Part shown: piece after piece, positions 10,656-19,979 of the stretch
How the letters are laid out: every line of letters begins with the position of its first letter
Position numbering within the stretch: position 1 is the first letter of the stretch
Assembly: GCF_030689305.1 (NCBI RefSeq)
Contig: NZ_JAUYVM010000022.1
Coordinates: 14,433-54,432, forward strand
Direction: 5' to 3'
DNA length: 40,000 nt
DNA from: Vibrio penaeicida
GTDB lineage: Bacteria > Pseudomonadota > Gammaproteobacteria > Enterobacterales > Vibrionaceae
Notes under the pieces: model-generated
What the model was told of the DNA's origin: nothing
The model's input: only the letters and a program-made list of their open reading frames with translations
Database searches by the model: none
Position numbers and translations under genes: made by a program

Positions 10656-10714
10656 TTCAAGAGAGCTGTGCTTTCGTACATTTGATTGAAAGATGAACAA
10701 TATCCGCTTTCACA

Positions 10715-10853
10715 CCAGATAGTCGACATCATAAAGAGCCTAAGTCTTGATAATACAATGAGTTGCATGATATTGTTATGTGTGTGAATGAATATTATTG
10801 CCCCCCTGTGGATGAATTATTCAGACATTTTGTCCGATAATAATTGTTCTGTA
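10715..10853 (+). repeat. Repeat R0, copy a (about 140 bp) ending GTTCTGT just before cassette A
   Basis: It aligns with 11881-12019 at roughly three quarters identity by eye. Shared blocks are CCAGATAGTCrACrTCATAAAG and AATTATTCAGACATTTTGTCC. Confidence 0.7.
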
Positions 10854-10867
10854 AAAAGAGGAAAACT

Positions 10868-11746
10868 ATGTTTCATTGGAAGAAAGAAAAACATCCGCAG
10901 GTCAAGCATACGATCGTCTATTTTGATACAGACAAAGATACAGCTGGGCGCTTTGAATCTAGACATAGTACAAACAAGCGTTTGGACATAGAGGTATGCA
11001 GTAACATTAGTGAATTATTGAGTCGAATTGATCAGCACCCAACTAAGCCAATAGATTTGATATTAATTGATTTCTATTCAAAACTCCCAGTGTCGCAATG
11101 TTCTGAACGTGAAGTGGAAAGTTACAAATCAAATTTAGAGCCAGAGAAGGCAAGTATTACTGAAGTCATAATGGACTTCCAAAAACACAAAGATCATATT
11201 AATCAACAAATAGATAAGGTTTGGTTACGTGAAGGGCTAAACGCTGCAGACACTCTGATAGATTACTTTGAGTATAAACAAATTGATGATATACAAATTG
11301 GAATGTATTCAATGTTGGGGCGTAGGCTTATAGCATCCAAAGATGCATCACGCTTGCAATCAAAAGGTGTGGTTTGGGTATGGAAGTCTAAAGATGGCCT
11401 ACTTAAGGAATGTGCGAACGACGCACAGCTGACTACAGTCTCAGAAGAAGCTGTTGCTAATTCTGAGTTCGACTCTATTCACAGTGCTATTCTTTCAAAA
11501 AAGCTAAGAGGCATTAGAGTTTCTGAAGTAATAGATGATTTAAAAGATGCTAGAACTTCTCACTTGCTTACTTTGTTTGCTCTAGTTATTTCTTTGATAT
11601 TTAACTTTTCAAATTTCGACTTTGGTATCGGGCATTTAGACTGGTTTGGTTATATATCTGCGTTAATTGTCTTGTTTGTGTCTATAAAAGGGGTGTACAA
11701 GACACTAAGTAAACTCAAAGCACTATCAAGTAGGAATTTTACATAA
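10868..11746 (+). CDS. Cassette A: receiver(REC)-like N-terminal domain protein with two C-terminal TM helices
   Basis: RBS AGAGGA upstream of the ATG at 10868. TIVYFDTDKD...PIDLILIDFYS resembles CheY-like beta1/beta3 strands. The C-terminus has hydrophobic segments LLTLFALVISLIFNF and WFGYISALIVLFVSI. Confidence 0.45.
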   Translation: MFHWKKEKHPQVKHTIVYFDTDKDTAGRFESRHSTNKRLDIEVCSNISELLSRIDQHPTKPIDLILIDFYSKLPVSQCSEREVESYKSNLEPEKASITEVIMDFQKHKDHINQQIDKVWLREGLNAADTLIDYFEYKQIDDIQIGMYSMLGRRLIASKDASRLQSKGVVWVWKSKDGLLKECANDAQLTTVSEEAVANSEFDSIHSAILSKKLRGIRVSEVIDDLKDARTSHLLTLFALVISLIFNFSNFDFGIGHLDWFGYISALIVLFVSIKGVYKTLSKLKALSSRNFT

Positions 11747-12019
11747 CACATATGAGCCTTCCGCCTGTAAATAGGCAATAGCATTCTCTTGGCTGCGATA
11801 GCAGCCAATAGATCTCACACAACATAGCTATCCACTTCGTTTTGTCATTTCGTTCATGAATGTGCGCCTCCACCTTCGCGCCAGATAGTCAACGTCATAA
11901 AGTGCTTAAGTCTAGTATGAGCAATTAATTGCATGGTATTCTAATGGAGTGGTCAGAATGTTATTGGGCACCCTGAAGATAAATTATTCAGACATTTTGT
12001 CCCATAGTAATTGTTATGT
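11741..12019 (+). repeat. Composite cassette boundary: R''-like ACATAAC + conserved 125-nt module + R0 copy b ending GTTATGT
   Basis: ACATAAC overlaps the stop of cassette A. 11747-11873 aligns with 15117-15243 and 16820-16946. 11881-12019 aligns with 10715-10853. Confidence 0.6.
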
Positions 12020-12053
12020 ACTTAGAGAAAAACTATATATATTTGAGGATGCA

Positions 12054-12521
12054 ATGAGAGCAGTAGTATTGTGGCTTGCTTTAGTTTTGGTGAGTCACCC
12101 CGCATTTTCTAGTGAAAAGCATCAAGCTCTTCAGGGATTAGGTAAGTTAATTAAGTCTAGCGATGTGATTAATGATACGAGTTCGAAAGAAACAACTAGA
12201 AGTTCAATGTTGAGCAAAGACTTCGTGTTATATCGATGTGTTCTTTCCGAGTTAGAGCGACAAGGACAATATAGCAATGACAACGCAATTGTTGCTGTAA
12301 TGACTAATAAAACGAGGATCATCAGTGTTACATCTGAAATTCAATATTGGATACTTGGTTTAAGTAAGGCTGCCCATTCAGGATATTCTCAAATATGCTC
12401 ATCAGGTCAGTCTAATGAAGTATCATTAGTTGTTTCAGGCTTTCTCCAAAGCTCTCAGTTGTACGAAAGACTGGCAATTTTAAACGAACATGGTTGGCGT
12501 GAACCATGGCAACCAAAATAA
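12054..12521 (+). CDS. Cassette B: secreted protein (signal peptide), unknown function
   Basis: GAGGA RBS upstream of the ATG at 12054. MRAVVLWLALVLVSHPAFS/SE is a signal peptide. The upstream part of the listed ORF is repeat R0, not coding. Confidence 0.55.
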   Translation: MRAVVLWLALVLVSHPAFSSEKHQALQGLGKLIKSSDVINDTSSKETTRSSMLSKDFVLYRCVLSELERQGQYSNDNAIVAVMTNKTRIISVTSEIQYWILGLSKAAHSGYSQICSSGQSNEVSLVVSGFLQSSQLYERLAILNEHGWREPWQPK

Positions 12522-12532
12522 ACGAAACACGT

Positions 12533-12657
12533 ACATAACAAACGGCTCAAGCCGACCGCTAACGCGTGGCACTTTTGGTTTGCAGTAATAACTGTGTTTA
12601 GGGCGCAATGCGGTAGCCGTTGTATTGCGTTGGCAGCGGCTTAAGCTGGTGTTATGT
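12533..12657 (+). repeat. attC site (VCR-like), 125 bp
   Basis: ACATAAC...CTCAAGCCGACC...TGGCACTTTTGGTTTGCAG...GCGGCTTAAGCTGGTGTTATGT. The layout is R''-L''...L'-R', and it ends 30 nt before the next start. Confidence 0.8.
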
Positions 12658-18111: not shown

Positions 18112-18141
18112 CGTTTAAGGGTAATCTGATATGGAGGGGCT

Positions 18142-18780
18142 ATGATAGTTGACTTAAGCCAAGTTCAAAATCGATCTTGCTTTATTTTTGGTAGTGCTCT
18201 TATTCTTTTGTCGTGGATTACACAAAACTATCTTAATTCCTCTTGGAATGAAGAGCGCCTTTTTCATGAAAGAGCTCAATTAAATAGATTAATTGAAGAG
18301 TTAGAAATCAATTTATGGACAAGTACTTTACTACTGGAAAGTTCAAAAGATAAACCTGATGAAGATGTAGTACTTCAGTCAACTTTCAAAATTGCATTGC
18401 ACTCAATTAGCTTGATGACATGGCACATATCTCCCTTTTTAGACGCGCCTGAGGACATACGCTCATCTCTAAACGAGAAGCATAAGCTTGAGAGAAGGGC
18501 TAGAGAGTATTTGCAAAAAAAAGATATCAAATCGTTAACTGTACTTCAGAATATGATCGCAATAGATTTGAATAAGAACGCTATTTCCTCACGAGATCGC
18601 ATTGCATCAAAGCATCAAGAGCTTTTGTTTAAGGTTAAAAGCTCTGGCAACGTATTTTTGTTCCTCTACGTGTGTGGAACGTTATTAATAGGCTTCAGTT
18701 ATTTAAAAAAGAAGGAGCTGGCTTCTTCATTACCAAAGCAATTAAAACCAAAGCGGAAAACAAAAAGGCGTAAAAGGTAA
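18142..18780 (+). CDS. Cassette I: membrane protein (TM - coiled-coil - TM, basic tail), unknown function
   Basis: GGAGGGG RBS. TM segments are CFIFGSALILLSWI and VFLFLYVCGTLLIGFSYL. The C-terminus is KPKRKTKRRKR. Confidence 0.55.
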   Translation: MIVDLSQVQNRSCFIFGSALILLSWITQNYLNSSWNEERLFHERAQLNRLIEELEINLWTSTLLLESSKDKPDEDVVLQSTFKIALHSISLMTWHISPFLDAPEDIRSSLNEKHKLERRAREYLQKKDIKSLTVLQNMIAIDLNKNAISSRDRIASKHQELLFKVKSSGNVFLFLYVCGTLLIGFSYLKKKELASSLPKQLKPKRKTKRRKR

Positions 18781-18782
18781 CG

Positions 18783-18908
18783 TTCTAACAAAACGCTTCA
18801 AGCCGACCGCCAACGCATGGCATTTTTGGTTTGCAGCAATAATTGTGTTTAAGACGCAATGCGGTAGCTTGATTTGTTCGCTGTCTGCGGTTTAAGTTGG
18901 CGTTATGC
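18783..18908 (+). repeat. attC site (VCR-like), 126 bp
   Basis: TTCTAAC...TTCAAGCCGACC...TGGCATTTTTGGTTTGCAG...GCGGTTTAAGTTGGCGTTATGC. Confidence 0.8.
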
Positions 18909-18922
18909 CACTAAGGTAAAGT

Positions 18923-19351
18923 TTGGTGACGAAGAAAGGTTATAAAAGAGAGCATATTTTCCCTAACGAATCTTATGTACAAGAAGCTATTGATAGATAT
19001 TTTCTGACCGCTGGTTATGAAATCATAGACGACAAATATACTGACTTAGTTTGTAAGCACCCTTCAACCAAAGAAACATGGTATATCGAAGCTAAGGGTT
19101 TAACATCTCAAGTCGGTTTGGATTTCCGTACCTGTATTGGGCAGGTTGTACAAAGAATGAAAGTGCAGGGTGCAAACTATGCTATTGCAGTTCCCGACAT
19201 TCAAAAATTTAGAGATCAGCTTTTAATTGTCGCTCCACATGTAAGAGAAATACTAAACTTGTACTGGGTTTTAGTGGACGAGAATCAGTCGGTAGTCATC
19301 GTGTCTCCAGAGCAAAATTTGCATAATAAATTGCCTAAGTGTGACGGTTAA
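18923..19351 (+). CDS. Cassette J: small PD-(D/E)xK nuclease-fold-like protein
   Basis: ...YTDLVCKHPSTKETWYIEAKG... fits D-x(n)-E-x-K. 142 aa. TTG/GTG start at 18923/18926. Confidence 0.4.
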   Translation: MVTKKGYKREHIFPNESYVQEAIDRYFLTAGYEIIDDKYTDLVCKHPSTKETWYIEAKGLTSQVGLDFRTCIGQVVQRMKVQGANYAIAVPDIQKFRDQLLIVAPHVREILNLYWVLVDENQSVVIVSPEQNLHNKLPKCDG

Positions 19352-19446
19352 CCATTGGCAGTTTTGGTTTGCGGTGAAATTAGTGTTTAGAGCGCAATAC
19401 AGCGGCTTGTTTTGTGCGTTGTCTGCGGCTTAAGCGAGCGTTATAT
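19346..19446 (+). repeat. attC site (VCR-like, shortened left arm), 101 bp
   Basis: GGTTAAC overlaps the stop codon. Then TGGCAGTTTTGGTTTGCGG...GCGGCTTAAGCGAGCGTTATAT. Confidence 0.7.
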
Positions 19447-19460
19447 AATTTGGAGATCAA

Positions 19461-19979
19461 ATGGACATTAATAAAAAGGACTTCGTCCTTAAGATAGCAC
19501 TTTCAAACACTCAAAGCGCTGCATTTCAAAGAGGATATGTTTATTCATCTAATGTTTCTGATTCAGATAAGTCTAAATTTTCGAAATATTTTCGCTCTCG
19601 TTTAAGAAGCCTAGAAAGCACGTATTCTAGTCAGCCTAATGAGATGGAGCACATAGAAATTATTGAGTCTTTCAGGGAAGACATTTCAAACAAATATGCT
19701 CACCTGCTACAGGGTAATAAGCTACGGTTTGGTACTGCACAAAAAGCAGTCAATCTATACGTAAAGTTCCTATGGACACTGGGCTACATAGAAGAGCAAC
19801 CTCCACATTGCCCGATTGATGGAATAGTATTGAAATCTTTGGGGCTCAAAGACAAGTGGACTGAACTTGACTGCCGACAACGCTACAAACAGATAATCGA
19901 ATCCGTCAGACAAGAAGCATCTAAAAATAAAATGACAATAGCGGAGTGGGAAATAATGCTCTGGAATGATGTGGCTTAG
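19461..19979 (+). CDS. Cassette K: hypothetical protein
   Basis: 172-aa ORF with a GGAGA RBS. No attC follows it, only a hairpin at 19993-20010. Confidence 0.5.
   Translation: MDINKKDFVLKIALSNTQSAAFQRGYVYSSNVSDSDKSKFSKYFRSRLRSLESTYSSQPNEMEHIEIIESFREDISNKYAHLLQGNKLRFGTAQKAVNLYVKFLWTLGYIEEQPPHCPIDGIVLKSLGLKDKWTELDCRQRYKQIIESVRQEASKNKMTIAEWEIMLWNDVA

Follow-up and report, generated by a model that had tools for sequence, protein, structure and literature searches.

A probable integrase-less integron cassette array between genes P and Q of a lambda-like Vibrio penaeicida prophage

Results

Layout of the locus

The stretch analysed here, 40,000 nucleotides (nt) of Vibrio penaeicida DNA (contig NZ_JAUYVM010000022.1; hereafter the window), contains a lambda-like prophage. 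Between the prophage genes P and Q, from 10656 to about 20815, lies a block that is very probably an integrase-less array of integron gene cassettes, i.e. a cluster of attC sites lacking integron integrases (CALIN). The original prediction was of an integron-type array without intI, running from P to Q inside one prophage, and the attC model, the cassette homologues, the R'' rule and the related prophages described below all bear this out. It ended the array at 19979; comparison with related phages shows that the variable block instead reaches from 10846 to about 20815.

Matches to Pfam and PHROGs give a continuous prophage in the order int…cI-cro-cII-O-P, array, AHH/Imm11 module and Q-lysis-terminase (Table 1). 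Eleven co-oriented open reading frames (ORFs) in the block, with starts at 10868, 12054, 12688, 13760, 14340, 15511, 16208, 17151, 18142, 18923 and 19461, are mutually unrelated as had been claimed, none resembling another at blastp E<1e-3. The block is also richer in AT than its flanks, with a GC content of 38.2% against 44.6% in the early genes and 51.3% in Q and the late genes. The array consists of about eleven or twelve promoter-poor single-gene cassettes from the Vibrio chromosomal-integron pool, each bounded by the G|TT crossover, and in most of them an attC of the Vibrio repeat family follows.

The sole recombinase found in the window is the lambda-type integrase of the prophage, a tyrosine recombinase without a TIGR02249 match, and there is no integron integrase anywhere in the 40 kb. 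With five significant attC sites in 7 kb and no integron integrase in the window, the block has the composition of a CALIN; it is not a complete integron, as intI is missing from the window and the head segment (10656-10846) has no demonstrated attI.

Table 1. Features of the window (positions are counted from its first letter)
Feature	Position	Strand	Remarks	Source
Chromosomal genes (2-oxoacid/acetoin dehydrogenase subunits)	1-3000		left flank of prophage	
Prophage left arm	3273..10655		xis, recT, recE/yqaJ, cro, cII among its parts	PHROGs, Pfam
Lambda-type integrase	3273-4487	-		
cI	7442-8065	-		
O	9039-9938			
P	9951-10655			
Array head	10656..10846	+	conserved in related phages; ends in R' core ...AATTG, then TT (G at 10846)	
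Cassette 1	10847..11747	+	ORF 10868-11746, no annotation; R'' ACATAAC 11741-11747	
IS110/IS1111-type remnant in place of the cassette 1 attC interior	11748..12012	-	R' GTTATGT next, at 12013	
Cassette 2	12014..12651	+	ORF 12054-12521, signal-peptide protein; intact attC 12533-12657	
Cassette 3	12652..13740	+	ORF 12688-13641, membrane protein; degenerate attC 13642-13753	
Cassette 4	13741..14316	+	ORF 13760-14191, small P-loop protein; attC 14199-14322	
Cassette 5	14317..15117	+	ORF 14340-15116, Abi-alpha family; R'' GCCTAAC 15111-15117	
IS110/IS1111-type remnant	15118..15475	-	between R'' and R' GTTAGCT (15476)	
Cassette 6	15477..16203	+	ORF 15511-16053, SieB superinfection-exclusion family; decayed site 16054-16209	
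Cassette 7	16204..16821	+	ORF ~16208-16765, secreted protein; R''-like ACATTAC 16815-16821	
IS110/IS1111-type remnant, third copy	16822..17131	-	R' GTTATAT next, at 17132	
Cassette 8	17133..18105	+	ORF 17151-17963, cytidine/dCMP-deaminase-domain protein; attC 17985-18111	
Cassette 9	18106..18902	+	ORF 18142-18780; attC 18783-18908	
Cassette 10	18903..19440	+	ORF 18923-19351; attC 19321-19446, diverged left arm overlapping ORF end	
Distal array part	19441..20815	+	ORFs 19461-19979, 20064-20483, 20458-20772	
Terminal attC remnant	~20780-20815		last ~35 nt only; aligned with terminal attC of L152	
Accessory module AHH/Imm11	20816..24046	mixed	not cassette-like	Pfam
80-aa ORF	20803-21045	-		
Imm11-like genes	21334-21912, 21996-22568, 23379-24017	-, -, +		
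AHH nuclease	22565-23341	-		
Prophage right arm	24047..40000	+	endolysin, holins, terminase, portal, capsid	Pfam, PHROGs
Q antiterminator	24204-24560			
Strong intrinsic terminator	24628-24652		11-bp stem, 7 GC pairs; ~70 nt past Q	terminator scan

Recombination sites

We scanned representative genomes for the central attC motif TGGCANTTTTGGTTTGCRG. Its matches lie mostly in Vibrio contigs, in several copies per few kb, and fall within elements of ~125 nt of the form xxxTAAC...GTTAxxx whose L boxes covary between species. Near-identical sites occur in contigs of V. penaeicida and Vibrio sp. S9_S30 (L020, L046 and L116; L numbers denote loci outside the window). From 282 full-length elements, 43 were kept at <80% mutual identity, with none contributed by the window. 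These Vibrio chromosomal-integron attC sites gave R1, a Vibrio-specific covariance model that is not the attc_4 model of IntegronFinder. The bottom-strand consensus fold of R1 has the attC shape (R stem, spacer, L stem with bulges), and 10 of its 21 pairs show compensatory changes.

Run unfiltered across the whole window, R1 gives five significant matches (E 1e-8 to 5e-19), namely 12533-12657 (93.8 bits, E 5e-19), 18783-18908 (90.8 bits), 14199-14322 (69.5 bits), 19321-19446 (65.5 bits) and 17985-18111 (47.0 bits, E 1e-8). The bottom strand lies on the minus strand of the window in all five, which are thus co-oriented with the ORFs. This independent model upholds the proposed attC identity of the repeats, that of 17985-18111 included, and finds no further significant match anywhere in the 40 kb. 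Two other sites had been called hybrid or degenerate. One of them, 13642-13753, is a marginal match (14.4 bits, E 0.26) with the R' box ATTATAC, and the other, 16054-16209, is not a significant match at all (9.1 bits at 16159-16209, E 3.9) and retains just an 8-bp L-like stem; neither has a canonical fold. A 13-nt match at 21090, once thought to hint at decayed cassettes further right, is at chance level (~0.1 expected) and has no model match.

The boxes of the five significant sites can be read directly, R''(RYYYAAC)...R'(GTTRRRY) with inner L'' and L', in full-length alignments to R1. The predicted four-member repeat family was also recovered mechanically, with 61-78% identity among copies at 12529, 14194, 18780 and 19318. 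The last of these had been described as lacking its left arm; the arm is present in diverged form (GCATAAT AAATTG CCTAAG...) at 19321-19345, in the 3' end of the preceding ORF. The wording of L'' and L', CTCAAGCCGAC...GCGGCTTAAG, is the same as in the classical 59-base element (59-be) of aadA1, as had been proposed. We checked the aadA1 site, GTCTAAC AATTCG TTCAAGCCGAC...GCGGCTTAAC TCAAGC GTTAGAT, which is 100% identical in R100 and thousands of plasmids.

Folding of the bottom strands had been suggested as a check. The site at 12533-12657 adopts the canonical R-stem/spacer/L-stem fold as its minimum-energy structure, with a bulged T and with the G opposite a T and not bulged. The sites at 18783 and 14199 retain the T and G positions in the R1 alignment, with pairs broken. 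No recognisable attC lies between the three distal ORFs (Table 1), and the segments 19972-20076, 16062-16211 and 20740-20822 do not fold into anything like an attC.

Cassette borders and homologues

Homologues of the cassettes were traced through members, in other Vibrionaceae, of the 90%-identity protein clusters around the window proteins. They were found solely in this way, as tblastn of the cassette proteins against a first set of integron loci gave no match. Their genomic contexts are dense attC arrays with R1 scores of 95-135 bits.

A good example is cassette 1. The window sequence 10846-11748 is 98.5% identical over 904 nt to a cassette in an attC array of Vibrio sp. VPAP30 (L144 5978-6881), and the homology begins at the G of R' and ends one base after R''. 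Cassette 4 (13741-14268) is 89% identical to a cassette of L138-L141 that has a different position and different neighbours in each array, and here the homology begins at the TT of R'. In L139 this homologue is the second cassette past an integron integrase; that array begins with thrS-infC-rpmI-rplT and a 321-aa integron integrase matching TIGR02249 at 463 bits (cut-off 265). Cassette 8 (17131-18108) is 92% identical, attC included, to an array cassette of Aliivibrio sifiae (L142/L143). For all three the homology starts at the G|TT of the preceding R', and the sequence upstream is unrelated.

Where cassettes form a linear array, the final six bases of every R' are already part of the following cassette. 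The start of a cassette should therefore complement its own R'' rather than the R'' that physically adjoins it. This is what we see, as 31/36 variable positions are complementary when cassette starts are paired with their own R'' and 22/36 when they are paired with the adjacent one. Random reassignment of starts and R'' boxes gives 24.1 ± 2.2 matches (permutation P=0.0075). The informative cases are cassettes 9 (TTAGAA / TTCTAAC), 10 (TTATGC / GCATAAT) and 5 (TTAGGT / GCCTAAC). Complementarity to the own R'' is the footprint of a circular cassette intermediate.

Interrupted sites

Three attC sites of the window are occupied by internally deleted elements of IS110/IS1111 insertion sequence (IS) type. 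Each starts directly after an R'' (xxxTAAC|ACATATGAGCC...) and ends directly before an R' (...ATGTCATTC|GTTAxxx). A full-length element is present in an array of V. nigripulchritudo (L105, 1183 to ~2785), and its 347-aa product matches NF033542, an IS110-family RNA-guided transposase. One end of this element matches the left ~115 nt of the window copies, whose right part carries, on the minus strand, what is left of the N-terminus of that transposase. The window copies measure ~310-375 nt and have no transposase gene, while their orientation and their position after R'' are constant. The copies are too diverged (77-88% mutual identity) to be recent duplicates.

In the first copy (11748-12012) the left end, 11748-11872, is 88% identical to the IS end of L105 and is followed by a copy of the head segment (repeats D2 and D5). 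The head segment 10656-10846 is thus partly duplicated at 11869-12012, fused to the IS left end (repeat D4/D5), and both copies end AATTG|TT, followed by a cassette. The copy at 15118-15475 (repeats D2, D3 and D7) matches L105 at 1178-1285 and 4523-4659. Other copies lie in related prophages, in L126 (9666-10035, 11017-11333 and 12134-12451), L145 (~2656-2976 and 3794-4188) and L152 (272-635 and 4744-5058).

The attC interior, from L'' to L', is missing in every deleted copy, i.e. three in the window and at least seven in relatives. The full-length copy in L105 differs in that the remaining attC still follows the element. The cassettes that flank deleted copies nonetheless obey the R''/R' rule. 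This systematic loss of the attC interior is unexplained by simple insertion.

ISKpn4, ISPst6 and other members of IS1111 are known to have one end of attC as their target, and their guide (seek) RNA is encoded on the downstream side of the transposase gene (PMC11187229). In the window elements this position is that of the conserved left part (11760-11870 and equivalents). This part contains a hairpin, TTGGCTGC-GATA-GCAGCCAA, and a stretch, TTTTGTCATTTCGTTCA, similar to the right end of the element together with its flank (ATGTCATTC|GTTA). Rfam gave no match at gathering or E-value thresholds, to a group II intron or to any known RNA, in the elements or in this left part. We considered two other identities for the elements and rejected both. 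Group IIC-attC introns are excluded by the Rfam result, and gene-less cassettes by the position of the 370-nt elements between one R'' and the R' that opens the next cassette, not between two complete attC sites.

Related prophages

Alignment with homologous prophages had been proposed as a check, and it reveals the same locus with different cassettes and a left border at the R' core. The IMG/VR contig 2630968716_000001 (L126/L155), identical to the V. nigripulchritudo contig L151, is 87-89% identical to the window across recT-recE and cII-O-P, up to 10847, and the match resumes at 20801. Between these borders L126 has different ORFs, four co-oriented attC matches (25-68 bits) and three interrupting elements. 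Look-ups with the Q protein led to further prophages in V. penaeicida (L145-L149) and V. nigripulchritudo (L150-L153), in which Q and the late genes show 93-95% nt identity to the window. Upstream of Q, each of these prophages has attC sites in a single orientation, and the cargo there includes, for example, KwaA/KwaB, CcdAB, Tae4 or a KAP NTPase. In the array of the V. penaeicida AP025149 prophage (L145), KwaA/KwaB (Kiwa, at 1-1162), CcdAB, Tae4 and an HNH protein stand among the attC sites.

There are four array variants, and compared in pairs they have nearly nothing in common beyond the interrupting elements and one or two cassettes. The conserved borders are 10847 on the left and 20801 or 24047 on the right. 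On the left, three phages (the window, L126 and L127) are conserved to 10847-10848, in the same R' core, and each continues with a different first cassette. On the right the border is a terminal attC, which in L152 (6412-6534, 45.5 bits) has an R' mutated to GTATCTC. The L152 site aligns with the window from ~20780, and the window stretch 19441..20815 is variable relative to both L151 and L152. In L145, which is without the AHH/Imm11 module, the attC array reaches to ~800 nt from Q; therefore variability in this lineage extends over everything from P to Q. Where relatives of P or Q are more distant (28-37% and 45% identity, respectively), Vibrio-type attC sites are absent.

Three further observations concern loci of this kind. 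In V. penaeicida TUMSAT-NU1 (contig_52, L042) the stretch 172-2912 carries a related recT (70% nt identity), a different, 382-aa integrase and then a truncated attC (2791-2912, 45 bits), with high-scoring chromosomal attC sites beyond it; this looks like a cousin prophage placed at, or within, an attC of the host integron. The V. nigripulchritudo copies in L150 (8200-10357) and L153 (4400-10357) are without the entire early half, and chromosomal genes (ligA or a Wzy-like gene) directly abut the attC sites or IS remnants upstream of Q, which suggests deletions ending in the array. Finally, the IMG/VR entries L124 (IMGVR_UViG_2511231129_000002, 2621-10737) and L119 (234-1387) contain extended series of high-scoring Vibrio attC sites (110-135 bits), as many as 14 of them within 8 kb; either chromosomal integron DNA has been labelled viral here, or phage and integron are associated in these cases too.

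Cargo and expression

Much of the cargo had been thought to serve defence, which is overstated. Two cassettes carry clear candidates for exclusion-type genes, cassette 5 by its matches to Pfam Abi_alpha (1e-30) and PADLOC PDC-S47 (6e-25) and cassette 6 by its match to Pfam SieB (2.5e-24). The deaminase domain of cassette 8 is suggestive of a defence role, and the remaining cassettes have no annotation. An Abi-alpha-related cassette of the V. cholerae integron has been reported to be anti-phage (10.1101/2024.07.02.601686).

There is no strong terminator inside the array and the cassettes are all co-oriented, which is why we infer that they would be expressed by read-through of the early-right transcript; promoters borne by cassettes or IS may add to this.

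Other features of the window

The window from 8000 to 24600 has no megablast match among deposited phage genomes. Repeats containing ATAAC/GTTAT in gene O (9437-9532) give weak, non-significant matches to R1 and are probably origin iterons. The V. nigripulchritudo relatives also have the toxin-immunity style AHH/Imm11 module that lies between the array and Q (20803-24017), which the V. penaeicida prophage L145 lacks. The terminator at 24628-24652 is as expected for the leader of a Q-antiterminated late operon.

Discussion

How might such an array have come to lie between P and Q? We propose that the cassettes entered singly, through recombination by an integron integrase at attC sites. Because the phage has no such enzyme, it would be needed in trans, presumably from the chromosomal integron of the host. 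Related phages keep the same slot with different cassettes, which suggests that the slot was turned over as the phage lineage diverged. Ongoing exchange driven by the host IntIA is plausible, and homologous recombination between attC repeats probably contributes too. Part of the cargo (Abi-alpha, SieB and possibly the deaminase) could provide phage exclusion for the lysogen.

A fuller version of this proposal is possible, though we hold it only tentatively. The phage lineage may keep a dedicated integrase-less slot in its early-right region, refilled from the chromosomal integron by SOS-induced host IntIA. One trigger would then start both prophage induction and cassette shuffling, and virions would bring new hosts an ever-changing selection of cassettes, defence genes among them, from the integron of the old one. 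The ~350-nt IS1111-type remnants, which replace attC interiors between cassettes that still obey the R''/R' rule, may serve as promoters or stand in for recombination sites.

Several observations weigh against current shuffling of this kind. The phage attC sites score 14-94 bits with R1, whereas sites of chromosomal arrays score 95-135 bits; the 17985 attC, for example, has 47 bits against 80 bits for its Aliivibrio counterpart in L143. The canonical fold is the minimum-energy structure for 12533-12657 only, and not for the other sites. The site at 18783 is chimeric, with L'' and L' of different subclasses (CAAGCCGAC with GCGGTTTAAG), the left arm at 14199 has decayed, three sites have lost their interior to IS remnants, and no attC is recognisable across the last 1.4 kb of the array. 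Two V. penaeicida strains (L145 and L146) share the same array at 99.98% identity, and neither excised circles nor within-strain polymorphism were observed. Loading and unloading of cassettes by the host IntIA, as originally envisaged, agrees with the comparison of related prophages, but a V. penaeicida intIA is not among the best 120 integron-integrase matches listed. Promoter and terminator scans of the window found no enrichment over shuffles and are uninformative. The array looks partly decayed, a state that fits decay better than active shuffling. This limits how much exchange could take place at present and, because most sites are degraded, exchange in this copy is probably slow or fading.

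Turnover could also be real and yet owe little to an integron integrase, with RecA or the phage RecT/RecE recombining the ~125-nt attC repeats of phage and host integron by homology. We think it unlikely that this was the main route. The phage does encode RecT and RecE, and attC sites of one species are 80-95% alike. Chimeric sites are seen at 18783 and in L126 (13209-13333, mismatched arms), and the class of attC that accompanies the cassette 4 ORF varies among L138, L139 and the window. However, homologous exchange does not account for left homology borders that fall exactly at G|TT instead of at variable points within attC, for the own-R'' rule, or for a head junction at a fixed R' core with no intact attC on its left.

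The array could alternatively be the fossil of a single capture, in which a stretch of a chromosomal integron was taken up once, by aberrant excision or illegitimate recombination, and then decayed, the differences among phages being separate captures or deletions. Such an origin has been proposed for Vibrio anguillarum phages (PMC9892861), and degraded attC sites, IS remnants, identical arrays in two V. penaeicida strains and the related prophage adjoining chromosomal attC sites in L042 are all in keeping with it. It is nevertheless improbable here. The same array borders recur in phages of two species with contents that are nearly all different, a single head R' core has three different first cassettes attached to it, and the phage backbones have diverged by 5-11%, yet cassette 1 and a chromosomal cassette remain 98.5% identical. 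Complementarity to the own R'' in individual cassettes points the same way, though a captured block would inherit it too.

Besides an absence of attC-model matches, two further outcomes had been named as fatal to the prediction, two abutting prophage remnants and a generic repeat; all three were examined and none was found. That an ordinary chromosomal integron lies between two unrelated prophage remnants is most improbable, since the truncated relatives L150 and L153, in which chromosomal genes directly abut the array or Q region, are outweighed by an order int...P/array/Q...late genes that recurs in several genomes of two species and two IMG/VR viral contigs, by the lack of intI or a demonstrated attI within 40 kb, and by joint conservation of the P and Q sides with L126/L155. 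A generic intergenic repeat unrelated to integrons, such as a repetitive extragenic palindromic (REP) or terminator-like element, would suit the imperfect palindromes just past stop codons, but is scarcely credible for a family that fills arrays adjoining integron integrases (L139 and L141), shows covariation of R and L boxes and bounds cassettes moving between arrays.

Chromosomal integrons are called sedentary, and there is little documentation of how their cassettes pass from one species to another. This phage and its host seem to have one cassette pool in common, and as the phage lineage carries a sizeable variable set of cassettes, some of them 89-98.5% identical to cassettes of other Vibrionaceae integrons, it is a concrete candidate vehicle for such movement. 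The locus also links two systems, prophage and integron, that are both switched on by the SOS response.

Comparison with known systems

Phage-borne integrase-less arrays have already been published, so the novelty claimed for this one must be reduced; it is a large and well-supported further case. Qi et al. (2023) reported that phage genomes contain three complete integrons as well as 17 attC clusters without an integrase, found that V. anguillarum temperate phages had captured parts of the chromosomal integron, and demonstrated recombination of phage attC sites by IntI1 (PMC9892861). As here, the arrays of that survey lie in temperate, and also in virulent, phages. Most of those phages have few such sites (a minimum of two, with three in phage TJE1), and the Vibrio cases are tied to prophage excision points at attC or intIA of the host integron (PMC9892861). 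The present array has about 12 cassettes and its place is between P and Q, and one lineage offers four variants of it for comparison. The attC sites of that survey were tested with IntI1 (PMC9892861), and those of the window are known from sequence alone. What this locus adds is its size of about 12 cassettes, its position in the early-right operon, the co-occurring IS1111-type remnants, the 89-98.5% cassette homologues in chromosomal integrons with exact G|TT borders, and the replacement of content between fixed borders in related prophages.

With CALINs in general the array shares at least two co-oriented attC sites with cassettes, no intI nearby and a cassette pool common to complete integrons. 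It differs in lying in a prophage operon, in having a fixed head and tail across a phage lineage, and in the many sites that are degraded or occupied by IS. With the Vibrio superintegron, of the Vibrio cholerae repeat (VCR) type with ~125-nt repeats, it shares the attC family (R'' xxxTAAC, L'' TCAAG-, centre TGGCAnTTTTGGTTTGCrG, L' -CTTAA-, R' GTTAxxx), the kind of cassette, three close homologues (89-98.5%) and a low GC content. Unlike the superintegron it has no intIA, no demonstrated attI or cassette promoter (Pc), far fewer cassettes, lower attC scores and, in this copy, no toxin-antitoxin cassettes.

The interrupting elements resemble the IS1111-attC group (ISKpn4, ISPst6 and ISPa21) in lying at one attC end directly after R'', in one orientation, and the full-length relative in the V. 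nigripulchritudo array encodes an IS110-family transposase. They differ from that group in being internally deleted to ~310-375 nt and in the absence of the remaining attC. As for the cargo, Abi-alpha-related cassettes in Vibrio integrons protect against phage (Darracq et al. 2024 preprint, 10.1101/2024.07.02.601686). The window has an Abi-alpha-related cassette and the L145 array has KwaA/KwaB; our view of the window cassettes comes from their sequences.

Finally, the array invites comparison with the moron or nin-type region of lambdoid phages, with which it shares its genome position, a variable content that is often of exclusion or defence type, and probably its expression from the early-right transcript. 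The difference is that its variability is organised as attC-bounded cassettes and not as free-standing morons. The variable accessory region of a lambda-like phage can thus be organised by integron recombination sites instead of by ordinary mosaicism.

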